64,000 nt of DNA from a virus (IMGVR_UViG_3300028048_003124); one strand, 5' to 3'. Counted from the stretch's first letter, positions 21,900-39,780 are shown. Translations and numbers: made by a program. The notes: generated by a model not told the origin, from the sequence alone.

Positions 21900-22688
21900 A
21901 TGATTTTTAGGACAGATGGGTTACTAACTTCTAAGGATATGCAAGATGCTTTATTTAATATATTAAGTAAAGGACTAAAGGGTGATTCAAAGTATGCATT
22001 CAAGGGAGGGTACATTGTATCTAATTTTCTAACAAAAAATATGAGGGCTACAAAGGATATAGATATGTCTGTTGTAGACAAGCAGACATATCTAAAAGTA
22101 GTGGAGTTGGTAAAGCCATTATTAGAAGAGTGGAAGGCAGAGGGGCAAATATTCGGGTATGACACCAAGCCGCCAGTAGTAACTGAAACAAAAAGAACTA
22201 GCGGTTTTGTTAAGATGTACCGTAAAACTAGTGATAATACGCCTAAAAGAAAAATTTGTGGTATAGATATAAGTGAACATAGTTTGACATTCGGTATAGT
22301 ATCTATAAACAATGGGGTAAATGTCTTTTCTGTTGAGAGAATGTTATCAGATAAGCTTGCGGTTGTTTTTTCAAATCCTGTAAAGTTAAAGAAGCGTTGT
22401 AGAGATTTGTATGATATTTATCTATTTGACCTAATAGGTGCAAAGATTGATGTAGATGTGCTAAGAAGTGGCTTAAATTATCATAACATAGATATCTTCA
22501 GTATATCGGCATTAGAGAGAATGGTTTTAACTGATATATCGGAACTATTGTATGCGTTGGAAATTATGTTAAAGGGTGGGCAGAGAGTACCATTAAATGA
22601 GAAAGGCTTGTCTACCGTAACACCAGAGGTATTAGTTTCGGAGAATATAAGAATACTTGACCTGCTAAGGAGTTGGTTTATGTGCTGA
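21900..22688 (+). CDS. AbiEii-family nucleotidyltransferase toxin
   Basis: AFKGG, RATKDID, DKL, RCRDLYDIY. Confidence 0.85.
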   Translation: MIFRTDGLLTSKDMQDALFNILSKGLKGDSKYAFKGGYIVSNFLTKNMRATKDIDMSVVDKQTYLKVVELVKPLLEEWKAEGQIFGYDTKPPVVTETKRTSGFVKMYRKTSDNTPKRKICGIDISEHSLTFGIVSINNGVNVFSVERMLSDKLAVVFSNPVKLKKRCRDLYDIYLFDLIGAKIDVDVLRSGLNYHNIDIFSISALERMVLTDISELLYALEIMLKGGQRVPLNEKGLSTVTPEVLVSENIRILDLLRSWFMC

Positions 22689-23145: not shown

Positions 23146-23973
23146 ATGTTATTAACTACAAATATTAGTAGTAGAGATGCTTTTTTATTGTCCTCAACTT
23201 CAAGGGGAGTACAGAAGAAATGGGTAAAGTCGGGATATTATTACAAAGCTGATACATTTGGGTATGAGTGTATATCCGAGGCACTTGCAAGTCAATTGTG
23301 TTACAATATTGCTGGTTTCAGAGAGGGTATAGACTACGCAGATTACAGCTTATGTAATATACGTCTTGATGGTGAGCTTTTGTGTGGCTGTTATAGTAAA
23401 AATTTTTTAGGTAACGGGGAGAGTATAATATCTTTTGCAAAAGTATTAGAGTCTGTATTAACAAAAGAAGATTGTCAGAGGCTGTTCTCCAACTCGAATA
23501 AAGGTAAACCCTTACTAGAGGATATTGTGTCTGTATGTTCTATGGGTACAGGTGTTAGTGAAGATGCCATTAAGTCTTATTTAGCCAGGGTGCTACAATT
23601 AGATGCTATAATTCTAAACCCTGATAGGCATCTAAATAATCTTGCATTTATACGAAGTAAGAGTGGTACTTATCGGCTTGCACCTATTTATGATAATGGG
23701 CTAGCTTTTCTTGCAGATACTATAACATTCGGCTTTGAGAGAAAGATGCAGCAAATGGTGCGGTCTGTAAAATCCAAGCCGTTTAGTAATTCATTTAAGA
23801 AACAGGTGGGCTACATTACAGATTATGGTTTATTGCCCATAAGTATAAAAGGTTTATATAATGATTTAAAAAATTATTCACCGCCTTTTAAGCATAAAGG
23901 CTATAGAAGAGCTTGTAAAGTATTAGAAATGCGATTAAAAGAATTGGAGGGTATAGCATGGAGAAGGGTGTAA
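23146..23973 (+). CDS. HipA/CtkA-like kinase (catalytic domain)
   Basis: SRGVQKKW, YKAD..GYE..SE, DRHLNN, LAPIYDNG. Confidence 0.85.
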   Translation: MLLTTNISSRDAFLLSSTSRGVQKKWVKSGYYYKADTFGYECISEALASQLCYNIAGFREGIDYADYSLCNIRLDGELLCGCYSKNFLGNGESIISFAKVLESVLTKEDCQRLFSNSNKGKPLLEDIVSVCSMGTGVSEDAIKSYLARVLQLDAIILNPDRHLNNLAFIRSKSGTYRLAPIYDNGLAFLADTITFGFERKMQQMVRSVKSKPFSNSFKKQVGYITDYGLLPISIKGLYNDLKNYSPPFKHKGYRRACKVLEMRLKELEGIAWRRV

Positions 23974-26437: not shown

Positions 26438-27346
26438 TTGTTTATGTTTGTCACTGATATAAAAGAAGATTACGGTATGTTAGGGTTGCCTGAAAGATTT
26501 GCCGATATACTACCAGAGTTTTGTGATACTTGTGGTGCACCAATGGAGATTAGTGATACGTTGACTGGGTTGCATTGCAGTAATCCAAGATGCAGCAATA
26601 AAATGGTAATGAGGATAAGAACTCTGTGCCAAGACTTAGGTATTCTGCGTTTTGGAGAGAGTACTATAGAGAAGTTCATAGATTATTATGGACCAACAAG
26701 CCCCATGGATATATTTGAACTGGAAGAGGGTATGTGCTTAGCTCCTGATGTATCTCCAAAAATCTCCGCTGATGTCATATCTCAGATTAAGAAAAGCCGT
26801 AAGATGCAGTTATGGGAGTATGTAATGTTCTCTAACATACCTTTCGTAAGGACGTCAGCAATGAAGATCTTCTCAGGGTACAAGACTATTGAAGATGCTT
26901 TTGCAGATATCGAATCAGGGGGTATTGCCTTTATCCAGAAAAAGTTAGACTTATCTGATTTAACGGTATCTGTTCAGGCTATAAAGGTGTACAACAGTCT
27001 TATGGAGTATAAGGATGATCTAATTGCAGGTGTAAAAGACGTAGAGATAATTGATATGTCTGATAAAATTACACTAAAGGTAGTATGCTCTGATCAAGTA
27101 GGTGGTAGGTTTAATAAGAAAGCTGAGTTTTATGCCTATGTAAACAATACTTTTGCAGATAAACTACATTGTGACTTCTTGCCGAGTGTCAATAAAAATA
27201 TTGACTATCTTGTATGGGCAGGGGCTGACGGCTCAGCAGCAAGATATACAAGTAAGGTAAAGAAGGTAGAAGGGTATAACGCAAAAGGTTGTAACATACC
27301 TATTGTAACAGCTGAGCAGTTCATAAAGATTGTTGAAGATCTTTAA
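26438..27346 (+). CDS. NAD-dependent DNA ligase C-terminal half (Zn finger, HhH, BRCT-like)
   Basis: PEFCDTCG...CSNPRC, LGILRFGESTIEK, IPFV...A, SVNKNIDYLV...SKVKK...IPIVTAEQF. Confidence 0.8.
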   Translation: MFMFVTDIKEDYGMLGLPERFADILPEFCDTCGAPMEISDTLTGLHCSNPRCSNKMVMRIRTLCQDLGILRFGESTIEKFIDYYGPTSPMDIFELEEGMCLAPDVSPKISADVISQIKKSRKMQLWEYVMFSNIPFVRTSAMKIFSGYKTIEDAFADIESGGIAFIQKKLDLSDLTVSVQAIKVYNSLMEYKDDLIAGVKDVEIIDMSDKITLKVVCSDQVGGRFNKKAEFYAYVNNTFADKLHCDFLPSVNKNIDYLVWAGADGSAARYTSKVKKVEGYNAKGCNIPIVTAEQFIKIVEDL

Positions 27347-27416
27347 GATGTAGTGTCTTATTTACAGTTAACTAGGATAAATGATTTAATAATAGAGAGG
27401 GCGTAAGAGTTTAATT

Positions 27417-28013
27417 ATGGTATCTATAACAAATAAGCGTGATTTTGCATGGTTGCTGTATCTTGTAAACGAGTGTAAGTCCGATGAGATTCTTGCTAAT
27501 GATATGTGGGATATTTTTGAGGGTTTGGTTATGTATGCATCAGACTTTATGGGTGACGCTGTAACTATAAAGAGTTACCAAATAAAAAGAAGAAGGAACA
27601 AGGTGCGTTTGGTAATGAACCCAGGGTATGTAGATATGCTAATATCCTCTATACATGGTGGTAAAGAACTCTGTTATATGAGCATATATCCTAGTAAAAT
27701 AGATATAAAATTTCCAACAGTTACAAATTCTACGCTAACGCCAAAAGCTGATTTAATGTGGCTAATAGATATCTTAGAGGGTATCTATGAGGATGGTGTT
27801 GATTACCTTAAGGCTTTTAAGATTAAAGAGTCGAATTCCAGCTATGGTATCAGTCCTATAGTAAAGGCATCTACTTTGCTAAAGAGAATGATGTTTTCGG
27901 AAGGCAAGACTTTAGGGTTTTCAGTAGAATTTTTACAAAATCAGGGGTTCACCGATAAAGTTATTTACAATGCTATATGCAACGTACTTAAAGAAACAAG
28001 TTATGTAGAATGA
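27417..28013 (+). CDS. Hypothetical protein, conserved C-terminal module family (member 1)
   Basis: Ends GFTDKVIYNAICNVLKETSYVE. Confidence 0.75.
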   Translation: MVSITNKRDFAWLLYLVNECKSDEILANDMWDIFEGLVMYASDFMGDAVTIKSYQIKRRRNKVRLVMNPGYVDMLISSIHGGKELCYMSIYPSKIDIKFPTVTNSTLTPKADLMWLIDILEGIYEDGVDYLKAFKIKESNSSYGISPIVKASTLLKRMMFSEGKTLGFSVEFLQNQGFTDKVIYNAICNVLKETSYVE

Positions 28014-28023
28014 GGTGTTTTAA

Positions 28024-28776
28024 TTGGGATTAAACAAAAGTAGTATAAGAAAATATGACTCGATAGTGTATAACCTGAAAAATACTAAAGAGTTATCAGA
28101 GGTTGTTAAAGATAGTATCTTAGAGGTACTTACAAGTATAGTTGACTATTTTGAGCTAAGAGATAGCTTAAAAGATGGTATTTGTATAACGGATATATCT
28201 TTAAGAGATGTTGGTGAGAGCTTCAGACTAAAGGTATGTGGATATGCAGGACCGAGTGTTAATGAAGATGGAACTGGTAATGATTTGGAAGAGTGCAGTG
28301 TAACTGTCTATTTAAAACCAACAGATTTGAGTATTCTGATCGGTGATTTACAGAAAGCAGAGGTAACTGTAAGTGGGGATTTATACCCTTATGATGGTGA
28401 TATAGGTGTAAACCTTGTCCCAGATGCTAGCATAAAAGAGACTCTAGAGTGGTGTATTAATGCTTTGGAGAATTACGGAAAACCAGTAATGGGTATTGAT
28501 TTTCATGTAACGGGTATTAACGAGACTAGTTATTCTGTTGATTATGAGAAGCCTTTTACTGAAACACATACTGAGGTAGATTGGAACAGAGAGGAGCATT
28601 TCGGTGCTTCGGCTGAGGCTTGGATAGATGTTAAGTTGGCATTAAATGATGTAGAAGCGGAAGAGGCTATAAAAAAGGGTGACTTTATCTTTGGCACCCA
28701 TGTAGTTAAAGAAAAAGAAACAGATGATAAAACTGCTGTAGGCGCAGAGTACTTATACATTGAGTTAAACGGGTAA
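28024..28776 (+). CDS. Hypothetical acidic protein
   Basis: GAGGTG RBS, 250-aa ORF. Confidence 0.7.
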   Translation: MGLNKSSIRKYDSIVYNLKNTKELSEVVKDSILEVLTSIVDYFELRDSLKDGICITDISLRDVGESFRLKVCGYAGPSVNEDGTGNDLEECSVTVYLKPTDLSILIGDLQKAEVTVSGDLYPYDGDIGVNLVPDASIKETLEWCINALENYGKPVMGIDFHVTGINETSYSVDYEKPFTETHTEVDWNREEHFGASAEAWIDVKLALNDVEAEEAIKKGDFIFGTHVVKEKETDDKTAVGAEYLYIELNG

Positions 28777-28790
28777 GGGGTGGATTTGGC

Positions 28791-29072
28791 TTGAAACAGT
28801 TTATATTAAGAAAACTTATAAGATGGGACAATGGTCGTATTTATGCAGTAGAGGTGCCTGTTCAGTTTAAGGTTGTTGTTGCACCAAACGCTGTTAAAGC
28901 TTGTAGTATGTTGGTATCAGAGGCAAATAATTTTAAAAGGAAACCAGCAAATAGAAGTATAAACCCAGGAGAAGGTTGTGCAGAGATAGAGAACATTTAC
29001 AATGGTCATAAATCTTATATAATGTTCGATTGTTTAGATTATGAGGAAGTTCGAAGTATATTTTTGAGGTAA
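28791..29072 (+). CDS. Hypothetical protein
   Basis: GGGGTG RBS, TTG start. Confidence 0.65.
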   Translation: MKQFILRKLIRWDNGRIYAVEVPVQFKVVVAPNAVKACSMLVSEANNFKRKPANRSINPGEGCAEIENIYNGHKSYIMFDCLDYEEVRSIFLR

Positions 29073-29090
29073 AGAGGTGTGTAGTAGTTA

Positions 29091-29351
29091 ATGGTAGGTG
29101 TTAGAAGAATACAGTGTCTTTCCATGGCTAAAGAGGATGAAAAATGGTATGGCAAGAAGGCTTTGGTAGGCGACACTATAAGGGTATTTACAAAGTTAGG
29201 AGTAGTATCTGGTGTTTTAAAGAAAATAAACAGTGTTAAGGTAGAGGTATTATGTGATAAGGGTAGAGTTGCTTGCTTACCATTATCAGAAATATCCAGT
29301 TTTGAGGTTGTTTACAGAGGGGATAACGCTATAAGATTTTTTAGTAGGTGA
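29091..29351 (+). CDS. Small beta-rich protein, possibly Sm/LSm-like; paralog of the next gene
   Basis: KALVGDTIRVFT..G.V.G.L..I pattern. Confidence 0.65.
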   Translation: MVGVRRIQCLSMAKEDEKWYGKKALVGDTIRVFTKLGVVSGVLKKINSVKVEVLCDKGRVACLPLSEISSFEVVYRGDNAIRFFSR

Positions 29352-29355
29352 TTTA

Positions 29356-29610
29356 ATGGTCGAAGTAAAGAGGGTATCGTGTATTTCTATTCCTGAAGAG
29401 CCTTTTCCTAGGAATAGAACAGTAAGAACAAAAGCATTTGTAGGAGATACCGTAGATTTGTACACATCAAGCGGTTTTGTCCGTGGAGAGATACGTAGTA
29501 TAGGTTCTAATGTAGAGTTGTATGTACAGGGTTCTATTGTGAGGATTCCGATATCCTCTATAAGGAACTTTGTAATAGCTGGTAGAGGAAAGTTATACAG
29601 TAGTTTCTAA
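29356..29610 (+). CDS. Small beta-rich protein, possibly Sm/LSm-like; paralog of the previous gene
   Basis: KAFVGDTVDLYT..G.V.G.I..I...IP.S.I..F. Confidence 0.65.
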   Translation: MVEVKRVSCISIPEEPFPRNRTVRTKAFVGDTVDLYTSSGFVRGEIRSIGSNVELYVQGSIVRIPISSIRNFVIAGRGKLYSSF

Positions 29611-29666
29611 TAGGTACTAAAGTGCAGATAGAAGCTTATTTAATTTATAAAGGTTGGTGCTAAGGT

Positions 29667-30818
29667 ATGGATTTTTTAATAATGAATAAAGACGTCCCTA
29701 TCTTAAGGTTCGGAAGCACTACACAAAAGGGTATCTCAACGGGTATTGTCATAAAAGAGGTTTATAGTAATACTATACCTCTGACCTTCTCAATGGGGCG
29801 AATTATAGATATAAACGAGTGGCTCAAGGGTAGATTAGTCCTAAGCCACAGGAGAGATATACTAAAACAATTAGAGTTTATTGGAATAGTAAAGATATTT
29901 GATATCATATCTGTTACAAATTGTATATCTTTAAACGACACTTACTGGGTAAAACAAGTAGGTAGTAAAATAAATTGGGATAGGGTATCACCTTATAGAA
30001 ATCCATTAAATTCTGCGATAGCTGACTATGCAATAGGGAGCGGAAGGAGTTTTAACGGTAAGAAAATTTCATCATCACCAGATTTTTCTACTGGTGGTAG
30101 TTTTCCAAAATGTTGGAAAAGGGTAAATGGTGTTATATATTTATATAAGACGGGTAGCCCAGGGTTTTCTAATTCTGGGATAGAGCCCTATTCAGAAATC
30201 TATGCATCAAAATTAATGGAAAAATTAGATATACCGCACATTACATACGAGTTAGTCAATTATAAAAATCGTCTTGCGACAAGGTGTCCATGTATGTGTA
30301 GTGAGAAAATTGGTTTATACCAAGTAGGAGATTTAACTGTAATACGAGAAGGGTATGAAGATTTAGTAAAACAGGGTTTTGTAAGTCCAGAATATTTATC
30401 TGAAATGCTTTTGGTAGATTATTTATCACTAAACATAGATAGACATCTAGGAAACATAGGTATATTGGTTGATAACGATAGTCAGGTTTTATTGAAAGGT
30501 TCTCCAATTTATGATAATAACATGTCTTTTGTACCATATTTTGTACCAGACAATTCAAAAAAACTATCTCAAAGTTTAGAGGAGTATATTATAGGTGCAG
30601 ATAGCAATGGTGATATTTTAAGGGCTTCTGACGGTTCTACCTTTGAGGACATTTTTAGGCTCTCCTTAAAATTGGGAGGGAATAAGATAGTGTCAAAGGT
30701 TAAAAATCTAAGGGGTTTTAGGTTTAAAACATCTATGCCACGTGATAGAGTTGCAAATGCTGTGTTAGATAGGCAGTTGACGATAGCAAATAAAATACTC
30801 AATAGTTATAAGAGGTGA
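29667..30818 (+). CDS. Full-length HipA-like kinase (N-domain fused)
   Basis: SLNDTYWVK; GSFPKCW, LYK.G, EPYSE, DRHLGNIG, PIYDN. Confidence 0.85.
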   Translation: MDFLIMNKDVPILRFGSTTQKGISTGIVIKEVYSNTIPLTFSMGRIIDINEWLKGRLVLSHRRDILKQLEFIGIVKIFDIISVTNCISLNDTYWVKQVGSKINWDRVSPYRNPLNSAIADYAIGSGRSFNGKKISSSPDFSTGGSFPKCWKRVNGVIYLYKTGSPGFSNSGIEPYSEIYASKLMEKLDIPHITYELVNYKNRLATRCPCMCSEKIGLYQVGDLTVIREGYEDLVKQGFVSPEYLSEMLLVDYLSLNIDRHLGNIGILVDNDSQVLLKGSPIYDNNMSFVPYFVPDNSKKLSQSLEEYIIGADSNGDILRASDGSTFEDIFRLSLKLGGNKIVSKVKNLRGFRFKTSMPRDRVANAVLDRQLTIANKILNSYKR

Positions 30819-31204
30819 GTCCGATACAATCATACAGACAAGCGTTCATAAGGGCAAACCCAGGGGTAAGACTACCAGGGTATGCAGGTTATTGGTATCG
30901 GTGTTCAAACTGTGGTAAGTGGTGTGGCAGACCAGGACGAGATAGGATAAAGATACCAGATAGCTGTAAAATGGAAGTAGATCACATAAAACCGTGGAGT
31001 CAAGGTGGTAGTGATGAGGTATGGAATTTACAACCTATGTGTAAACCTTGTAATAGAGCAAAGTCCAATGGAGTAACTATATCAGATAGGGGAAAGATAT
31101 TAAAAAATGATATACTTCACGGAGATATAGTAACTGGGTATTTGAGAAGAAAGTTTAGGCAAAACAAGGTACTTAAGGTACTAGGTATTAATAAAAGGAG
31201 ATAA
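30815..31204 (+). CDS. HNH endonuclease
   Basis: CSNCG...VDHIKPWSQGGSDEVWNLQPMCKPCNRAK. Confidence 0.88.
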   Translation: MSPIQSYRQAFIRANPGVRLPGYAGYWYRCSNCGKWCGRPGRDRIKIPDSCKMEVDHIKPWSQGGSDEVWNLQPMCKPCNRAKSNGVTISDRGKILKNDILHGDIVTGYLRRKFRQNKVLKVLGINKRR

Positions 31205-31212
31205 GATAGAAT

Positions 31213-31995
31213 ATGAAAAAAGTTGTATTTAATGATGAGTTGTCTTTTTCAACATTTGTTTTGGGATTAGAAAAACTTTATTGGGGTAAGAGTTTCAATT
31301 TTGAAGTTGAGAGTGACAGAGTTATTGATATGTATAATTATTTAACTGATATGACATACCGTTTAGCTTCTTACTCTGGAAGTGAGAAGACTGTAGTTAT
31401 TCTCCCATCATTTGAAACTATTGGTAGTGAAAAAGGCAAGGTCTCATATTACTATAAGGTAACAGTTGAGAGTGGCGGAGCAATTAATATCTATATGTAT
31501 AACGTTGATATGGACTTGTATGCAGTACAAGGGATTGATGATGAAGATACTGTTGCTGAAGCAGAAGAATATGATGATGTTGTATTCTATTCTGTAAGTG
31601 ATATGCTTAATAATATAGAAAAGATACCTGTTTCAGATAAAGATAAGTCATTATGCCTCAGGGTATATGATGGCATAATAGTCTACTCCGATGATGCAGA
31701 AGATATAAGAGATATGTATGAAACTTTTGCAAATTGTGTAGATCATATATTAACAGACGGTTATGATGAGTTTATTGATGAAGATAATTTTCTTAGATTA
31801 AAGGAATCAAAAGGTAATCAGAGAAGACCTTTTAATAAGGTAAGATATATATGTAAAGAGTTTGATAAGCTCTTCAAAAAGGGAAATATCTCTGTAAATG
31901 AGGTAATAGAAGATCTAAAATTTAGAGGCTTTGATGAGGAAGATGTAAATAAGGCTGTTTTGATGTCTATAGGTTCAACAGTATGGAAAGACTAA
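31213..31995 (+). CDS. Hypothetical protein, C-terminal module family (member 2)
   Basis: Ends GFDEEDVNKAVLMSIGSTVWKD. Confidence 0.75.
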   Translation: MKKVVFNDELSFSTFVLGLEKLYWGKSFNFEVESDRVIDMYNYLTDMTYRLASYSGSEKTVVILPSFETIGSEKGKVSYYYKVTVESGGAINIYMYNVDMDLYAVQGIDDEDTVAEAEEYDDVVFYSVSDMLNNIEKIPVSDKDKSLCLRVYDGIIVYSDDAEDIRDMYETFANCVDHILTDGYDEFIDEDNFLRLKESKGNQRRPFNKVRYICKEFDKLFKKGNISVNEVIEDLKFRGFDEEDVNKAVLMSIGSTVWKD

Positions 31996-32014
31996 TCTAG
32001 AGGGTAGTGGTTAT

Positions 32015-32581
32015 ATGATTTCTATTGAAAAAATACATACGAGTGTAGATATTTCAGATATTGATATATCAGGTAACAGAAAAGAAAGGTTAAAGTCAGC
32101 CCTAGAGGGTACTTTGTTAAGATTGATTTCTCAGATGCCTAAGGTAGATGTTATACAAGACGTACCTAAACATACTTATAAGTTGTGGGAGGTTTCATAT
32201 CTTTCAGGTGGGTTATTGTCTATAAAGAAGACAGGAAGTCGTTTTTATGTGTATTTAAGGAAAAATGGTGCAGAAGTTAGTTACTCTAAAAGGTTGTCAT
32301 TCCTTGCAAGAGATGCCATAGACTTTGTGCAGTCTGAGGGGGACATTCAAGATTTTATCAGTAGATTGAGAGATATTGCTGTTAAAGAGGAGTCATTGAT
32401 TTCAGAAGCTGGTTTAGATTATAATAAGGAAAGTGCTTCAGATTTCTTTAAGGTTAATTTCTTAAACACTGGTAAAACTTTAAAAGAGGTAATATCTTTA
32501 ATGAGAAGTAAAGGTTACTCATCTACAAGCACTCTTCAGGCTGTTGTAGATGTACTCAAAGACACAACTTGGGTAGAGTAG
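32015..32581 (+). CDS. Hypothetical protein, C-terminal module family (member 3)
   Basis: Ends GYSSTSTLQAVVDVLKDTTWVE. Confidence 0.75.
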   Translation: MISIEKIHTSVDISDIDISGNRKERLKSALEGTLLRLISQMPKVDVIQDVPKHTYKLWEVSYLSGGLLSIKKTGSRFYVYLRKNGAEVSYSKRLSFLARDAIDFVQSEGDIQDFISRLRDIAVKEESLISEAGLDYNKESASDFFKVNFLNTGKTLKEVISLMRSKGYSSTSTLQAVVDVLKDTTWVE

Positions 32582-32596
32582 AGAAGGAGGGTTCTT

Positions 32597-32899
32597 ATGC
32601 ATACATTTTATGTTCAATCTCTTAAGATAAATGGCACTAGGTGCTTAACGCCAGATTTGGCTCAGTTAGGTCTTTTGGGAAGTCACAATGGTTGTGGACC
32701 TGTTTTAGTTGCAAAGAGAATGCTGGGGTTTATAGGAAAGAATTTTAGGAAAGTATCAAAAAGAGATGTATTTGGGTCGGTAAATTCTGGCTACAAGACA
32801 AACCCAGATGAGCAAGAGAAGACATGGGTGTCTTTGGTTGATGAGAATAACAAATGTTTTTATATTGCGTTTGATTTAGTATCTAGGAGGCATATGTAG
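32597..32899 (+). CDS. Hypothetical protein, paralog of 34389..34688
   Basis: LKINGT, GP...AK..LG..G.NF...RDVFG, LVDE...F.AFD. Confidence 0.75.
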   Translation: MHTFYVQSLKINGTRCLTPDLAQLGLLGSHNGCGPVLVAKRMLGFIGKNFRKVSKRDVFGSVNSGYKTNPDEQEKTWVSLVDENNKCFYIAFDLVSRRHM

Positions 32900-33522
32900 T
32901 GGAATCAAAGATAGCTTTTTATAGTAGCGGTGTTTTTTGTGAATGTCTTTCTAATTATTCAAATGGTTCTTCTTGGGGTTTTACATCCGATAAAGAGGGC
33001 TTTAATACTATTTATGAGGCGTTAACAAGTAGTGCAGAAACTTTATTGAAATACCACGGAGTAGAACAGTCCGCTCACAGATTTCCAGTAGATTATGATG
33101 AAGCTATAAAAATAGATTTAGATATAAGAGTTGGAAGGGGTTATGTTTCTTTATATGAGATACAAATAGATGGTAGTACAGAGAATGAGACTTTGCTGCT
33201 CAAGGCATATAAAGATCAAATAGAGGTTTATACGCAGGGTTATGGATCAGAGGATGCTTCTCTCGTAGTTTTAGTGAATATGCTAACAACAAAGGGTATG
33301 TTAATTTCTGATGAGTATACTATTACTAGTGTGGCTAATTCTGGTGCCTTAGGAGATAAGGCTAAATCGGTTGTTATGTACAGAGAGTTTGACAAGTTAT
33401 TCAAGTCTGGTAAGCACTCACTAAATACGGTAGTAGACATCTTCAAGAAAAGAGGGTATTCTGATAAACAGATATATCAGGCTATAATGAATACTCTAGG
33501 TTCTGCTGTTTGGGAGGATTAG
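32899..33522 (+). CDS. Hypothetical protein, C-terminal module family (member 4)
   Basis: Ends GYSDKQIYQAIMNTLGSAVWED. Confidence 0.75.
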   Translation: MESKIAFYSSGVFCECLSNYSNGSSWGFTSDKEGFNTIYEALTSSAETLLKYHGVEQSAHRFPVDYDEAIKIDLDIRVGRGYVSLYEIQIDGSTENETLLLKAYKDQIEVYTQGYGSEDASLVVLVNMLTTKGMLISDEYTITSVANSGALGDKAKSVVMYREFDKLFKSGKHSLNTVVDIFKKRGYSDKQIYQAIMNTLGSAVWED

Positions 33523-33567
33523 TCGTAAGTATTTAAATATTGTGGTACAAAGTCAAAGGGGTATATT

Positions 33568-33777
33568 ATGGATAAGTTAAAAGATCTTTATTGTTCTGTT
33601 TTTGATGAAAATGGTGAAATTAAACTTTGTGGCAGAGAGGCTTGTAAAAGGCTAATTGTTGAAATGAAGTGCTATACAAGTGTTGATGTAGGTGATGAAG
33701 ACTCTGGATTTATGAATGTAGATAACATGAAAAAAGAGTATAAAAGGTTAGTGGAAGAGGGTATTAATAATGATTAA
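33568..33777 (+). CDS. Small hypothetical protein
   Basis: 69-aa ORF with RBS; overlaps the next start. Confidence 0.65.
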   Translation: MDKLKDLYCSVFDENGEIKLCGREACKRLIVEMKCYTSVDVGDEDSGFMNVDNMKKEYKRLVEEGINND

Positions 33778-34369
33778 ATGCTATGATGAAAACAGTTTTG
33801 ATTTTTTATTTACTCCTATTAAAGATATGATACCTTTTGGTAGTAAGAGTATGTATAAAGATTTTTACAATTTAGTTACAGGTTTAGCTAAAGGTGTGAA
33901 CAATTATAACGGCTCAACAAAAGATATAGTAGTTGATAAAAAGAGAACAGATAATGATTTCCATGATATAGTGATAAAGGTTGGTTCTTGCAGGTTAGTT
34001 CTTGTAGAAGTACTCTATGATTATGAGATGAATGTGTCTGGAGAATTTTTAATGGCGTCAATTTTCCCAGATAGTATAGAGGTAATTGCAAGAGATGGCG
34101 ATTATCTTTCCCATATACGCTCACTTGGGTATCTCATAGTAGTGTGTATGCGAAATCAGAAAAAGTTGTCCGCTAAGAAGATAGAAACATTGATTAAGAG
34201 TGATAAAAACAGTACCATAACTGCTATGAGCTTGTTTAGTGAATGTTTCATGAAAAACGGTTTAAGCTATGATACTTCAATAAAAAGATTAAAAAGTGCT
34301 GGTTTTTCTGATAAACAGATTTATAGAGCGGTAAGTGATGTATTAGGATCATCAGTGTGGGTAGATTAA
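33770..34369 (+). CDS. Hypothetical protein, C-terminal module family (member 5)
   Basis: Ends GFSDKQIYRAVSDVLGSSVWVD. Confidence 0.75.
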   Translation: MIKCYDENSFDFLFTPIKDMIPFGSKSMYKDFYNLVTGLAKGVNNYNGSTKDIVVDKKRTDNDFHDIVIKVGSCRLVLVEVLYDYEMNVSGEFLMASIFPDSIEVIARDGDYLSHIRSLGYLIVVCMRNQKKLSAKKIETLIKSDKNSTITAMSLFSECFMKNGLSYDTSIKRLKSAGFSDKQIYRAVSDVLGSSVWVD

Positions 34370-34388
34370 AAATAAGGAGGAGAGTTTT

Positions 34389-34688
34389 ATGTCTCATAGG
34401 TTTATAGTATGGGGTTTAAAGGTCAATGGCACTCAGTATAATGGGAGTGCTTTTAATAAAGCAGGGTACATGGCTAAAGGACCTATAACAGCAGCAAAAC
34501 AGATCTTGGGAAACAAGGGCAGAAATTTTCATATTGCTACACAAAGGGATGTATTTGGAAAGTATTGGGCTTCAAACAATCCATCAAGGGTTGTTGCCGC
34601 CGATGTACAACCTGCAATAGAGCAAACATATATTCAGTTGGTAGATGAGACAGGCAAGCATTATTTTGTTGCCTTTGATGCGATATAA
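34389..34688 (+). CDS. Hypothetical protein, paralog of 32597..32899
   Basis: LKVNGT, GPITAAKQILG, RDVFG, LVDETG...AFD; AGGAGG RBS. Confidence 0.75.
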   Translation: MSHRFIVWGLKVNGTQYNGSAFNKAGYMAKGPITAAKQILGNKGRNFHIATQRDVFGKYWASNNPSRVVAADVQPAIEQTYIQLVDETGKHYFVAFDAI

Positions 34689-34703
34689 GGAGTATGATTA
34701 TTT

Positions 34704-35420
34704 ATGAAAATGTACCATGAGTTAGCGCAAGTAAAAGAAGGTAATAAGAGAGTTGGTTGGCTTGTTTCTTCTTACTCTGATTTAAAGAATGCGATGTTTT
34801 ACCCTTTAGAGTATTTACCCGAAGATACTTTTATAAGCTGTGTAGATAGGGGATTAGTACAGTATTTTACTATTAAGAATGGTAATTTGGCTATTGAGTA
34901 CACAGATGAAGAGCTACTAGAGTTTAAAAAGGTAGGAATTAAGAAAGTGCCTACCACTGATTTAAGGGAATACTTAAGTATGGATGTGAGTCTACAGCAT
35001 AAACCTTTGTTTGAAGCTTTTAATGGTGGTAAACCTTATGTATATGGTATATCTGCAAGGAAGTTGTACGGCAGAATATTCTGCCAAGTATGGGTATTTT
35101 GTGAAGCTCCCTCCGTTGTTTCGATTAGGCTTTTTCATCAAAATCTACTTACCAAGGCAGATAACAGTATTCTAGCGATAGCAACGACGATGGGTACTGT
35201 AAAGACAGGTGTAAATTGTGTATATGGTATGCCCTCGATAAGTTTAATGGAGCTTTGGAAAAGGTATGATATGGCAAACATTTCTATGAAATCAGCAAAA
35301 ACTGCATTACGGACGGCTAAGAAGTTTGCTGAGGGTGATGCCAAAAAGACTAAAAGGGTAAATAAACTGTATTCTGGAGAGGAATTAGAAGAAATAATTA
35401 GACGTGTAGAGACTATATAA
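34704..35420 (+). CDS. Hypothetical protein
   Basis: AAGGAG RBS, 238 aa. Confidence 0.7.
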   Translation: MKMYHELAQVKEGNKRVGWLVSSYSDLKNAMFYPLEYLPEDTFISCVDRGLVQYFTIKNGNLAIEYTDEELLEFKKVGIKKVPTTDLREYLSMDVSLQHKPLFEAFNGGKPYVYGISARKLYGRIFCQVWVFCEAPSVVSIRLFHQNLLTKADNSILAIATTMGTVKTGVNCVYGMPSISLMELWKRYDMANISMKSAKTALRTAKKFAEGDAKKTKRVNKLYSGEELEEIIRRVETI

Positions 35421-35441
35421 GTTTTAAAAAGGTGGTATATT

Positions 35442-36149
35442 ATGTTTGATCTTTCTTTGTCTGTTGTTGGTAATGCAAAGCGCATGCCGACGGTAATGGT
35501 ACTTAGCGTTGTTTTGTTTTCAACAAACATAGATGCTAAAGAGAGCATAAAGATTTTGTCAGAGAGGTATAATTCTCTATTAACTTCTGTTAAAGGTATT
35601 ATCGGTGAGTGTGGTAATATCAAGAAAGGGGTTATTTCTACTTCTGCTAGATATAAGAACGTAGAGAAAAAGAATAGCAATGGAACAAAAGTAAGTACTA
35701 GCGAGTTCTCCCATTATTACTCTACGCAAAGTATGGTAATATCTGATATGGATATAAACATTGATACATTGATTCTGTTGATGAACGAAGCCTATTCAAG
35801 CGAAGGGGTAAGTTCTTGTGACTTTTCTTTTTCTTTAAAAGAAGACGAGATGTATGCTTTAAGAGAAGAAGCTATAAGAAAAGCATTTGAGGAAGCCACG
35901 CATAAGGCAGAGCTGTTCAGTATAATGAATAAAAGTGCTGGAAAGTTTAAACTTAAAGACGTAAACATGAATTCCTCGGTATCATCGAGAAACGCTAAGA
36001 TGAAGGCAGGGATTGACAGCTCCGTTTTTGATAATTTAGATTTTGGGGCAGTTGAGAATACTGGTCTTGTATTGTTAAGAGATAATATTGATGTAAAAGA
36101 AGTAAGTGTTTCTCAAACTATTTCTTTTACTTTTGAGATAGGTGAGTAG
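35442..36149 (+). CDS. SIMPL (DUF541) domain protein
   Basis: LSVVGNA...P; FSL......LREEAIRKAFEEATHKAE; VSVSQTISFTFEI. Confidence 0.6.
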   Translation: MFDLSLSVVGNAKRMPTVMVLSVVLFSTNIDAKESIKILSERYNSLLTSVKGIIGECGNIKKGVISTSARYKNVEKKNSNGTKVSTSEFSHYYSTQSMVISDMDINIDTLILLMNEAYSSEGVSSCDFSFSLKEDEMYALREEAIRKAFEEATHKAELFSIMNKSAGKFKLKDVNMNSSVSSRNAKMKAGIDSSVFDNLDFGAVENTGLVLLRDNIDVKEVSVSQTISFTFEIGE

Positions 36150-38466: not shown

Positions 38467-39780
38467 ATGTCAGACAAATTAACTCTAAGAATTGAGGGTA
38501 TGCTAAGTTTTATAGATATGAATGGCGAATCTGGTTTTGATGATTCAAAGGTAGAGGAGCTAGAGTCTATTATCCTTGAGTGCAACTCTAATATGTCAGG
38601 AACTGCTACAAATGCAGTTGCAGATAGTATCTATGACACTCTTTATGATATGTTAAAGATGGTAGCTCCTGAAAGCAAGGTATTAAGCGAGATTTGGGAA
38701 GATGATGGGGAGATTTCTGAGTATACTGATTTACTCATAAAGAATCCTATGATGTCTATTGAGACAGCGAAATCATATTCATGCAAGGCTTTATCTAATT
38801 TCATAGCCAGAATGCCCGAAGAAACGGGGTACTTTGCTTCTTATAAGATCAATGGTCACGGTATCAGGGTAGTATATAAAAATGGAGAGCTTGTGTCTGC
38901 AACAAGTAGAGCTAGAAGTTCAGCAGGAAGAGACCTAACGCATCATATGAGGGTTTTGTTAGGCGATAGGAATGATAGTTTAGCTGAGTATGATCTTGTT
39001 GAGTTGAGAGGTGAACTATGCTTACCTGTTAATAAGTTAGATGATGCTAGAAGTTTCAATGCAGGTTTGAAGTCTGCATTTTCTGCTGTATCTTCTCTGA
39101 TAAGACCGTCAGCGACTGATGAGGAAATTTCTTTGTTGGATTTCCTTTGCTATGGTTTTATCATGGATGGTGTGTCTTTTGATACAAGAGAAGATGAGTT
39201 TCAACAGATTGAGTCTGTTGGTTTTACTACTCCGCAGTATCTACTCATTGAGTCTACTAACAAAGATGAGTTACTAGCGGTCATCAAGGACGTTGTTACT
39301 GCTTTTGAAGAGCAGTATGAAGAGTTTGGCTACTTCTGCGATGGTGTTGTATTTGAGTGCAACGACAGGGGCTTGTTTGCAGAGCTAGGTACAGAAGGAA
39401 ACCATAATAATGGTAACATTGCTCTTAAAGTAGGAGTTTGGGAGCAAGTAAGCTACAGTGGGTATGTCCAGAAGATACTGTGGACTAGGGGTAAGACTAA
39501 ACTTTCACCTGTTGCTATTGTTGCAGATAATGCCGATATGATGATAGAGGACGATAGTGGTGAAATCGTAAACTGGGATGATTTAGGAGTTTTAACAGCT
39601 CAGGGTAATAAGGTCAGAAGAGTACCTTTGTATGAGCCAAAGAATATTCTTATTCTTGATGCGTATCCAGGTGAGGTTATATACTTTAGATACGGCGGAG
39701 AAGCTGGAGTTGTGCCTTGTTTCCCAGATGGAAGGCTTCTAAAAGAAGATGCAGCTTTAGACATCTTGTTGGGTGAATAA
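38467..39780 (+). CDS. ligA: NAD-dependent DNA ligase N-terminal half (Ia, adenylation, OB domains)
   Basis: ADSIYDTL (Ia), PMMSI, motif I YKING, ATSR...GRD.T, ELRGE, DGVV, IALK, TKLSPVA; lacks Zn finger/HhH/BRCT. Confidence 0.88.
   Translation: MSDKLTLRIEGMLSFIDMNGESGFDDSKVEELESIILECNSNMSGTATNAVADSIYDTLYDMLKMVAPESKVLSEIWEDDGEISEYTDLLIKNPMMSIETAKSYSCKALSNFIARMPEETGYFASYKINGHGIRVVYKNGELVSATSRARSSAGRDLTHHMRVLLGDRNDSLAEYDLVELRGELCLPVNKLDDARSFNAGLKSAFSAVSSLIRPSATDEEISLLDFLCYGFIMDGVSFDTREDEFQQIESVGFTTPQYLLIESTNKDELLAVIKDVVTAFEEQYEEFGYFCDGVVFECNDRGLFAELGTEGNHNNGNIALKVGVWEQVSYSGYVQKILWTRGKTKLSPVAIVADNADMMIEDDSGEIVNWDDLGVLTAQGNKVRRVPLYEPKNILILDAYPGEVIYFRYGGEAGVVPCFPDGRLLKEDAALDILLGE

Follow-up and report, generated by a model that had tools for sequence, protein, structure and literature searches.

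Tail-bearing genes in a variable island of a large phage

The window, as we call the whole 64,000-nucleotide stretch of DNA analysed here, corresponds to the replication-gene region of a large and very divergent phage, contigs of which reach 229 kb and are found in bovine and sheep gut runs. It contains a variable island bordered by genes for two parts of an NAD-dependent DNA ligase. All five genes that a first-pass annotation had picked out in this island are present, on the + strand, and their products share a C-terminal module (the tail) behind differing N-terminal parts (the heads).

26438..27346, + strand: DNA ligase subunit B-like gene (C-terminal half of an NAD-dependent ligase), left border of the island
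27417..28013, + strand: tail-bearing gene 1, ORF 27417, 198 aa (open reading frame plus tail profile, E 5.6e-25)
27879-28010, + strand: tail of ORF 27417 (last 44 codons), end S-Y-V-E-stop
31213..31995, + strand: tail-bearing gene 2, ORF 31213, 260 aa
31861-31992, + strand: tail of ORF 31213, end V-W-K-D-stop
32015..32581, + strand: tail-bearing gene 3, ORF 32015, 188 aa
32447-32578, + strand: tail of ORF 32015, end T-W-V-E-stop
32899..33522, + strand: tail-bearing gene 4, ORF 32899, 207 aa, GTG start
33388-33519, + strand: tail of ORF 32899, end V-W-E-D-stop
33770..34369, + strand: tail-bearing gene 5, ORF 33770, 199 aa
34235-34366, + strand: tail of ORF 33770, end V-W-V-D-stop
38467..39780, + strand: adenylation (N-terminal) half of an NAD-dependent ligase, right border of the island

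The last 50 residues of all five proteins align without a gap, defining a module of 44-50 aa with pairwise identities of 25-44%. The chain ends in W-x-(D/E)-stop in four of the five and in Y-V-E-stop in ORF 27417, in line with the (W/Y)x(D/E) ending described originally. When a 45-column tail profile was run on all 512 stop-to-stop frames of at least 40 aa on both window strands, it retrieved exactly these five ORFs (E 4e-27 to 1e-23; next frame E 0.16). Leave-one-out profiles recover every member (E 1e-7 for ORF 27417, 2e-8 for 31213, 8e-9 for 32015, 2e-17 for 32899 and 3e-14 for 33770), with the best unrelated frame at E 0.044 or worse. The five-gene C-terminal module is real and specific.

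The ligase subunit B-like gene matches TIGR00575 (positions 391-634, E 9e-10) and the PDB chain 9hu3_B, 'DNA ligase subunit B' (E 9e-4). It is 78% identical in the related loci L001-L006 and, while outside the tail family, fixes the slot of the island. At the other border, the adenylation half matches PF01653 (E 4.6e-16) and TIGR00575 (positions 15-330, E 7e-21). An HNH nuclease does lie within the array, as first annotated (PF01844, 48.1 bits; cutoff 21.4). The supposed HipA kinase, ORF 29667, is HipA-like by its matches to phrog_8728 (6.7e-8) and PADLOC PDC-M03A (7e-10), but its HipA_C score (PF07804, 14.7 bits) falls below the cutoff of 30.5; its paralog, ORF 23146, reaches 27.6 bits.

The ORF 27417 product is identical to protein P0005, which is found on contigs of up to 229,201 bases. 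The head of ORF 31213 is strongly acidic (net charge -18, computed in the near-identical P0004) and carries an internal direct repeat, seen in the DNA as repeat D1 at 31305-31353 and 31464-31512. The GTG start of ORF 32899 overlaps the stop of ORF 32597. Among the five paralogs, ORF 32015 alone has a recognisable counterpart in related phages (L005 15611-16225; BLASTP, 24% identity over 187 aa, E 4e-9).

RNA-library contigs cover 27297-28298 (ORF 27417; identical to the window), 31825-32980 (ORF 32015) and 33259-34417 (ORF 33770), and cannot show transcription because such libraries may contain DNA; in runs X2 and X20, bins without cover are uninformative. Rfam families and tRNAs were not found in the region, and sites resembling promoters or terminators do not exceed the shuffle expectation. 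Since no DNA repeat joins the five tails, we rejected a mobile DNA cassette encoding the tail.

One tail on many heads

In several comparisons the heads proved poorly similar, as the first reading had it, and mostly showed no detectable relationship. In a phmmer search of the five heads against 86 + strand frames each head finds itself alone, and the best BLASTP cross-pair is a 25-residue stretch (E 0.01 in a five-sequence database). When heads were compared as profiles with the tails removed, one of 325 pairs exceeded 20% probability. The head of ORF 32015 matches those of P0038 and P0053 (89% probability, E 2e-6), and the heads of ORFs 32899 and 33770 show a weak colinear similarity (15.8% probability, 81 columns). 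Reading the sequences, we see the order helix, beta-strands, helix in all five ORFs, as in the one head modelled (pLDDT 60-68), and the five heads may share one unrecognised fold.

The same tail occurs on clearly different domains in relatives. P0036 combines it with a BspA-type leucine-rich repeat (LRR) head (PF13306 LRR_5, 260.5 bits against a cutoff of 27.7, E 2.6e-78), and this combination recurs in complete ORFs of the syntenic loci L001-L007 (217.2 bits at L006 9542-10330); Pfam finds no LRR_5 in the five window heads. LRRs are protein-binding scaffolds. Small heads of about 80 aa precede the tail in P0032, P0049 and P0103, and P0013 carries two tail modules, the internal copy lacking the W. 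Free-standing tails of 54-74 aa are also present in the family and could be truncated gene calls. Judged from the LRR heads, the ~80-aa heads, the double copy and the mostly undetectable relationship between heads, the tail is independent of the head. The first-pass description of a constant C-terminal module on variable domains thus holds, and the objection that the proteins are simply full-length homologs of one known fold fails on the LRR heads, the ~80-aa heads and the P0013 double copy.

Within related pairs, the tail is usually better conserved than the head. P0019 and P0017 share 93% of tail residues against 32% of head residues, and P0044 and P0094 59% against 19%; for P0003 and P0009, the latter a distant ortholog of ORF 33770, the figures are 61% against 30%. 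The tail is kept no better than the head between P0032 and P0049 (41% against 50%) and between P0004 and P0007 (77% against 85%). Most of the conserved tail residues are structural on reading the alignment (helix caps, turn glycines and core hydrophobics), so conservation alone could reflect folding rather than an interface. Of 40 family proteins, 31 have the stop codon directly after [WYF]-x-[DE], and the other nine end otherwise. Extensions beyond the motif, of seven residues in P0007 (the ORF 31213 ortholog) and five in P0013, indicate that a free terminus exactly at the motif is not obligatory.

The tail module is wider than one phage. A profile search of the kind proposed with the first-pass annotation, run exhaustively on 1.84 billion representatives, returned 119 matches, 38 of them tail-bearing clusters, that is, short proteins with a single match over most or all of the profile, reaching the C-terminus or stopping a few residues short of it; the objection that a tail profile has no other hits therefore fails. 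A word-indexed search with a wider tail alignment (A8) gave at least 12 proteins, none with precomputed Pfam domains, and one locus was found by an IMG/VR scan with alignment A4, with no relative in the scans with ORF 32899, ORF 33770 or alignment A7. Copy number and head type differ among syntenic relatives: the fetched flanks of L002, L004 and L005 hold two tail copies each against five in the window, and the IMG/VR record of L001 (estimated 73% complete) holds one strong copy and one weak (E 1e-3). Among GenBank phages, 27000-35000 has no DNA match, and tblastn with ORF 32899 and with P0019 finds nothing at E up to 1. In 185,579 species genomes, no carrier turned up in two pattern scans; as each scan used one or two peptide patterns, they weakly support absence from bacterial chromosomes.

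We also searched for the tail among catalogued families. Pfam-A has no match above cutoff for the five ORFs and none on the tail in 28 family proteins, PHROGs v4 yields no family for the five ORFs, NCBIfam 20 nothing on the tail of the five ORFs, P0019 or P0037, and PADLOC 2.0 no tail match. PF00627 (UBA/TS-N) is absent from the five tails (E up to 0.1) and from 28 family proteins (E up to 0.001), occurring in the unrelated multi-stretch proteins P0018, P0022 and P0033 alone. The titles and abstract openings retrieved in a literature search hold nothing describing the module. By these comparisons the tail is an uncatalogued family in large gut-phage proteins, as its first description as an unrecognised family had suggested.

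PDB sequences match the tail in DotG repeats and designed proteins alone (positions 18-43), and give it no family. Decapeptide-repeat proteins (PF25296; DotG/IcmE of the Legionella Dot/Icm system) share with the tail the word L-K-x-x-G-(F/Y)-S-x-K-(D/E), located at its helix 2 to helix 3 turn, which explains the multi-stretch matches in the profile and PDB searches. In these proteins, however, the match is confined to profile positions ~16-38 and recurs over and over (in 7muc_AG, 19 stretches, each below significance); they lack helix 1 and the W-x-D/E end, and the stretches are not C-terminal, whereas each tail has a single copy of the word and PF25296 is absent from the five ORFs and 28 family proteins. 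Of five long tail-profile matches scanned for PF25296, out of 81 long or multi-stretch matches, two pass its cutoff and one falls below it. PPR repeats as the source of the multi-stretch matches were rejected, as Pfam shows decapeptide repeats.

A predicted three-helix bundle

The AlphaFold model of P0001, which differs by one residue from the ORF 32899 product, consists of a head (helix 31-52, strands 59-111, helix 118-131; pLDDT 60-68), a linker at 133-152 (pLDDT below 50) and three tail helices at 151-169, 175-184 and 189-200 (pLDDT 89-95). The tail is thus confidently predicted to be a compact three-helix bundle behind a disordered linker. We found no known fold for the modelled head with Foldseek against the PDB or with the VIA search, and no usable match in Atlas; in a wide VIA search, a weak probe of this head, the best rows (a vaccinia entry-complex chain, a StART-like domain, Atp11 and TipC2) reach Z 4.7-5.0. 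Tyrosine-phosphatase rows from Foldseek with the full model against the PDB are meaningless (E 0.019 or worse, TM ~0.2).

Fold matches are generic (Z 6.3 or less, Foldseek E 0.019 or worse) and include DNA-binding helix-turn-helix domains. Pex14 (5aon_A; Z 6.1, rmsd 1.6 A over 48 residues) and RecX (3d5l_B; Z 5.8, rmsd 2.0 A over 50 residues) both score in the range of unrelated helical models. Pex14 chains top the Foldseek list for the tail-only model (E 1.3), and RecX, the Rpa2 winged-helix, DeoR and AhrC (Z 5-5.8 or Foldseek E 1.8-5.6) fall in the tools' stated chance range. Like the tail, the Pex14 N-terminal domain and RecX repeats are small right-handed three-helix bundles of ~50 residues, but identity is 8-23%, neither Pfam family matches at the thresholds used, and those domains are N-terminal or repeated whereas the tail is a C-terminal end module.

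The tail is roughly neutral. The mean net charge of 37 tails is -0.8, and that of helix 3 is -0.3; columns 32 and 34 are predominantly D/E, and helix 3 of ORF 31213 starts D-E-E-D. Near-neutral charge fits protein binding better than DNA binding. Columns 36 and 40 of helix 3 (mostly Y/V/L) form a second hydrophobic stripe besides the core face, in a domain rich in aromatics.

A putative docking handle

The module exists, is head-independent, is conserved beyond the head and is positionally fixed at the C-terminus. Docking or oligomerisation by the tail, as first proposed, is a reasonable reading; the effector-like array proposed with it found no support. The account we prefer, whose chance we put a little short of even, is that the tail may be a constant protein-docking handle tethering variable heads to one common putative partner. 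These would be three-part proteins: a fast-evolving or swapped N-terminal head, a ~20-residue disordered linker and a ~44-residue three-helix domain that closes with aromatic-x-acidic-COOH. Targets would differ from head to head, and through the common tail every one of these proteins would be tied to a single partner, a phage or host machine.

Alternatively, the tails may bind each other, so that the paralogs, and the LRR form in relatives, would build one homo- or hetero-oligomer displaying different heads. An excerpted account of the stressosome offers a parallel, in which RsbR paralogs with variable heads assemble via a conserved C-terminal domain (PMC11821858). The several carriers per genome (five in the window, two each in L002, L004 and L005) agree with such an assembly, as do the second stripe on helix 3 and the wealth of aromatics. 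The Pex14 N-domain, the best structural look-alike, binds aromatic peptide motifs, so the terminal W of the tail could dock in trans. We nevertheless hold co-assembly to be unlikely: in a bundle of 44 residues most of the hydrophobic residues are needed to fill the core, and the copy count of L001 indicates that a multi-paralog assembly is not universal.

It is rather improbable that the tail is a C-terminal helix-turn-helix (HTH) nucleic-acid-binding domain, and the family a group of regulators whose sensor or effector heads vary. The genes do lie among replication and transcription genes, the fold lists contain RecX repeats, DeoR, the arginine repressor, the Trp repressor and winged-helix cores, and a language-model search ranks a 'Mor transcription activator domain' cluster first (0.79). 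Yet every one of these scores lies in the tools' own chance range (Z under 8, Foldseek E over 1, Atlas under 0.8). Neither Pfam nor NCBIfam gives an HTH match for the five tails or the scanned family proteins, and hhalign of alignment A8 with the window's sigma-4/alpha-CTD protein gives 0.4% probability. The tail is also neutral to acidic, without the net positive charge and the basic or polar recognition helix of such domains. In classical HTH motifs a hydrophobic residue precedes the turn glycine, a position occupied in the tail by variable charged residues.

There is a similarly small chance that the tail has no shared function, the genes being an old, fast-diverging paralog family whose bundle is the most constrained element and was occasionally recombined onto other genes. 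The mostly structural nature of the conserved positions, the common order of elements read in the five heads, and the head similarities noted above (weak between ORFs 32899 and 33770, strong between ORF 32015 and P0038) speak for it. Against it, the same tail follows LRR and small heads, which are plainly distinct domains, tail identity is 93% where head identity is 32%, 31 of 40 proteins end at the fixed position, and P0013 has a tandem copy. Least probable is a signal targeting varied cargo to the particle (capsid or ejection apparatus) or for export, the export/packaging tag of the first-pass annotation: its logic, a constant terminal tag on varied cargo, is that of encapsulin cargo-loading peptides and P22 scaffold-domain fusions, strict C-terminal placement is consistent with it, and the modularity evidence applies to it too as a special case of docking, but the genes lie in the replication region between two ligase subunit genes rather than among structural genes, with no adjacent capsid, portal or secretion gene and no signal peptide or transmembrane segment noticed on reading the sequences by eye.

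For the docking handle, there are precedents in known systems: the predicted architecture resembles those of SspB-type adaptors, poxvirus ankyrin/PRANC proteins and dockerin-bearing enzymes. SspB-type AAA+ protease adaptors have a substrate-binding domain, a flexible linker and a short C-terminal ClpX-binding element, so the order of folded head, ~20-residue disordered linker and extreme C-terminal element is common to both; there is no sequence relation, the phage proteins end in a folded bundle of 44 residues where the adaptors have a short peptide, and they form a family of several paralogs whose heads are swapped. Poxvirus ankyrin-repeat proteins, which bear a C-terminal PRANC/F-box-like domain, are likewise a viral multigene family with variable protein-binding repeat heads, a small constant helical C-terminal domain and a copy number that varies between related viruses. 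The host domain of life differs, however, the phage proteins scanned have no Pfam F-box or PRANC match, and to our knowledge bacteria lack the SCF ligase that PRANC recruits.

A bolder version of the docking handle, which we regard as a long shot, is that a group of giant rumen and gut phages would use the tail as a universal handle for recruitment, with each head capturing a different host protein and the tail, with its W-x-D/E terminus, delivering it to one machine such as an AAA+ protease. The captive might be, for example, a defence or housekeeping factor, and the machine one of host or phage; the heads would be the acidic alpha/beta domains in the window phage and LRRs in relatives. If true, this would be a bacterial-virus counterpart of the poxvirus ankyrin/PRANC substrate adaptors, with head turnover driven by an arms race.

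The tail is a well-defined new domain family, and its putative role is plausible. If it is a portable 44-residue docking tag, it would be a compact tool for cargo tethering. In giant gut and rumen phages hundreds of genes have no known function, and a recurrent small domain gives a rare handle on them; identifying the partner of the tail would place a whole set of orphan proteins in one pathway.

A C-terminal tail family beyond the window

The five tail-bearing ORFs (27417, 31213, 32015, 32899 and 33770, named by start position, all on the + strand) exist as the first-pass annotation described them, and their last 50 residues align without gaps at pairwise tail identities of 25-44%. Searched against all 512 window frames of at least 40 aa, a 45-column tail profile recovered the five ORFs at E values of 4e-27 to 1e-23, with the next best frame at 0.16, and leave-one-out profiles regained the omitted tail at 1e-7 to 2e-17 against noise of 0.044 or worse. 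The heads, N-terminal of the tails, are as dissimilar as had been claimed: phmmer matches each of the five to itself only.

Word-indexed searches found this lineage alone (2 proteins and 7 proteins). An HMM of the five tails, as the annotation had proposed, does match beyond the window: of 1.84 billion cluster representatives searched exhaustively with the profile, 119 matched at E up to 1e-3. Thirty-eight of these are short proteins of 54-335 aa with a single match over most or all of the profile, at the C-terminus or a few residues short of it; five of the 38 clusters represent the window's own paralogs. The remaining 81 are long or multi-stretch proteins matched at profile positions about 16-38 only. 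A Pfam scan of five of them placed two above the cutoff of PF25296, the decapeptide-repeat family, one below it and two with other families, and a PDB sequence search found the same short word reiterated in DotG/IcmE. On the strength of these five, we treated all 81 as probable carriers of a common short word rather than as relatives.

Across A3, an alignment of 37 family proteins, the tail consensus reads F-x-x-L-(Y/F)-(K/H)-N-T-G-K-T-L-x-x-V-(V/I)-x-x-(L/M)-K-x-x-G-(Y/F)-S-x-K-(E/D)-I-x-x-A-(I/V)-x-x-V-L-G-D-x-x-W-x-(D/E). The stop follows directly after [WYF]-x-[DE] in 31 of 40 family proteins. Five deviate in the last one or two positions (public clusters P0035, P0025, P0071, P0069 and P0112), two extend past the motif (P0007 by seven residues, P0013 by five), P0091 stops at the aromatic residue and P0067 has a divergent end.

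The annotation had not recognised the family, and no catalogued family in Pfam, PHROGs, PADLOC, NCBIfam or PDB sequences covers the tail. For ten clusters checked, the sole name in any source is 'hypothetical protein', and the result entries of a full-text literature search describe no such domain. The tail is a clean new, uncatalogued domain family; its architecture is of a familiar kind. The largest contig with a tail carrier measures 212 kb. For P0013 and for P0025 the longest contig is 3,623 bases, so the two may be neighbours on one contig; similarly, a contig of 135,678 bases is given for P0136 (P0034-type) and for P0153 (P0064-type). From these matching sizes, other phages probably carry several tail-bearing genes per genome too.

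Relation of the tail to its heads

By sequence comparison, the tail is an independent module: it occurs on leucine-rich repeat (LRR) heads, on heads of about 80 residues (P0032, P0049 and P0103) and on heads that mostly show no detectable relation to one another, twice in P0013 (whose internal module lacks the W), and in five family proteins of 54-74 aa that are barely more than tail. The idea of a constant tail on variable domains is thereby borne out. The 54-74-aa proteins may be truncated gene calls, and the P0036 cluster has two short members from 1.3-kb contigs that seem to be fragments.

The LRR heads come from seven loci in other assemblies (L001-L007; contigs of 2 to 186 kb) that are syntenic with the window and share with it HNH (76%), dCMP deaminase (66-69%), ligase-B-like (78%) and HipA-like (43-47%) genes. 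There the tail carrier is a complete ORF of about 265-277 aa with a BspA-type LRR head (217 bits). It immediately precedes the ligase-B-like gene; in the window the first tail gene immediately follows that gene. The flanks retrieved for L002, L004 and L005 each contain two tail copies, one in the LRR form and one 32015-like, and the IMG/VR record from which L001 comes (140 kb, completeness estimated at 73%) has one strong and one weak copy; the window has five copies, without the LRR form. Downstream of the HNH gene in L001 (3145-3714) and L004 (721-1290), an ORF of 190 aa matches the tail weakly, at E 0.02 and 0.008 (1e-3 in the IMG/VR record scan), the match covering profile positions 13-46 and ending three residues ahead of the stop. 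This ORF may be a degenerate tail copy; the L006 ORF at the corresponding place has an LRR_5 head.

Once the tails had been cut off, 26 head groups were compared profile to profile (325 pairs). A single relation was clear, between the 32015 group and P0038/P0053 (probability 89%, E 2e-6), and one was weak, between 32899 and 33770 (15.8%, 81 colinear columns); all other pairs fell below 10%. Where two proteins are related, conservation is usually higher in the tail than in the head, judging by identities of 93% vs 32%, 61% vs 30% and 59% vs 19%, with exceptions in the P0032 group (41% vs 50%) and P0004/P0007 (77% vs 85%). For this comparison P0001, P0003 and P0004, near-identical but not identical, stood in for ORFs 32899, 33770 and 31213, and P0005 and P0006 are exact matches to window proteins.

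Several heads carry a strongly negative net charge: -18 in P0004, -20 in P0046, -17 in P0043 and -10 in P0001. An acidic stretch in ORF 31213 reads D-D-E-D-T-V-A-E-A-E-E-Y-D-D. Some acidic phage proteins act as DNA mimics. The ORF 31213 head also holds a 49-nt direct repeat (73% identity), which yields two similar peptide stretches, V-E-S-...-I-x-x-Y-x-Y, and may be a small internal duplication:
31305-31353 and 31464-31512: the two repeat copies

An AlphaFold2 model of P0001, one residue off ORF 32899, was built from a 35-row alignment (mean pLDDT 62.7). The tail is predicted to form three helices (151-169, 175-184 and 189-200; pLDDT 89-95), followed by a final block (201-207) of mean pLDDT 66. 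A linker (133-152, pLDDT below 50) precedes it, and the head is modelled as a helix (31-52), four to five antiparallel strands (59-111) and a helix (118-131) at pLDDT 60-68. The model of the free-standing P0037 has the same three helices (mean pLDDT 76.7). In the VIA fold search, matches at Z 5-6.3 were to cullin winged-helix B, the Pex14 N-domain, RecX repeats and the Rpa2 winged helix; the Pex14 match (Z 6.1, with 48 residues superposed at rmsd 1.6 A) is in the chance range for helical models. Foldseek found nothing significant with the full model (best E 0.019), and its best E with the tail model was 1.3 in PDB and 0.29 in BFVD. By the tools' own calibration, the matches to the modelled tail are common helical arrangements, and fold searches of the P0001 model assigned no fold to the head.

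Among the conserved tail columns, T17 and S31, each followed by an acid at the third position, resemble helix N-caps, N13, G15 and G29 look like helix ends, and the i/i+3/i+4/i+7 hydrophobics would form the core, judging by column statistics. With these roles set aside, the candidates for an interface are D45, W48, the terminal acid and, on helix 3, a second hydrophobic stripe at columns 36 and 40.

A variable island between two ligase halves

The window is the part of a large, very divergent ruminant-gut phage in which the replication genes lie, as judged from gene content, polymerase identity, contig sizes and sample origin. Pfam matches include gyrase/topoisomerase subunits, a DnaB-like helicase, a family A DNA polymerase, a UvrD-like helicase, dCMP deaminase, phage tail lysozyme domains and sigma-4/alpha-CTD proteins. 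The polymerase reaches at most about 27% identity to any of 50,697 GenBank phage records, and GenBank phages have no DNA match to the region of the five tail genes. The longest contig with a protein identical to a window ORF has 229,201 bases, and 27417-34369 is present in 14 studies, in runs with bovine or sheep gut as their label. The window has all its long ORFs on the + strand, a G+C of about 35% and, along its whole length, a strongly positive GC skew.

Two genes, 11 kb apart and in reversed order, encode the halves of a split NAD-dependent DNA ligase and bound a hypervariable island. Besides the five tail genes, this island holds HipA-like and HNH genes, two small paralog pairs, a SIMPL/DUF541 protein and several matchless ORFs. 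The annotation had placed an HNH nuclease and a HipA kinase among the tail genes; the nuclease stands, and the second is a HipA-like gene only.

Genes in and around the island
21900-22688, +: AbiEii-type nucleotidyltransferase-like gene (PF08843 6.7e-12; PADLOC AbiEii 1.7e-9)
23146-23973, +: second HipA-like gene (PADLOC PDC-M03A 1.1e-13)
26438-27346, +: DNA ligase subunit-B-like gene (LigA positions 391-634; 9hu3_B 'DNA ligase subunit B', E 9e-4)
29091-29351 and 29356-29610: small paralogous ORFs of 86 and 84 aa (E 4e-11), ahead of the HipA-like gene at 29667-30818
32597-32899 and 34389-34688: paralogous ORFs of 100 and 99 aa (phmmer E 2.5e-14)
35442-36149, +: SIMPL/DUF541 ORF (PF04402 6.3e-11, 43.3 bits vs cutoff 25.2)
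38467-39780, +: ligase adenylation half (positions 15-330)

ORFs 32597 and 34389 each lie directly downstream of a tail gene (32015 and 33770, respectively), have no family match in Pfam, PHROGs or PADLOC and no BLASTP counterpart at E 1e-4 in L001-L007, and could be partners of the tail proteins or co-duplicated passengers. In L005 (13629-15050) a single homolog of the 86/84-aa ORFs directly precedes the HipA-like gene, which suggests that small protein and kinase-like protein form a conserved pair, a layout reminiscent of toxin-antitoxin systems. The AbiEii-type and second HipA-like genes carry defence- or toxin-type domains within a phage replication region. SIMPL/DUF541 proteins are usually bacterial periplasmic or secreted proteins, so one is unexpected here.

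In a sheep-gut run, one contig of about 96% identity is colinear with the window over 29182-35659 (252 differences and 10 gaps over 6.5 kb), so that a related strain has four tail genes on a single contig. The listed insertions within ORF 31213 total three bases, and the other listed indels fall in intergenic or overlap zones. A separate contig (27672-29071) covers most of the remaining tail gene, ORF 27417. Window-identical RNA-library contigs span 27297-28298, 31825-32980 and 33259-34417, among others; since DNA carry-over is possible, they are only a hint of tail-gene transcription.

Possible roles of the tail

We tentatively favour a tethering or adaptor family in which the tail docks all members on one common partner. 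Varied heads, which in relatives are of a known protein-binding type (LRR), would each be joined by a flexible tether to a constant folded end, and the tail, with its positionally fixed aromatic-acidic terminus, would dock onto the partner, a host or phage machine. The multiple copies and the turnover of heads, in a variable island between conserved genes, would fit such a family. Putative self-association of the tails into a mixed complex seems rather unlikely by comparison. We consider it improbable that the tail is a helix-turn-helix (HTH) binder of nucleic acid, as its charge is neutral to acidic with acidic residues at the start of helix 3, Pfam scans of the five ORFs and family proteins and NCBIfam gave no HTH profile match, and comparison with the phage's own sigma-4 protein scored 0.4%. 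It is equally doubtful that the tails have no common function beyond structure. A particle or export targeting tag is the least probable, the gene neighbourhood lending it no support. Docking as the role of the tail family is testable, and its interest would be moderate until the partner is found.
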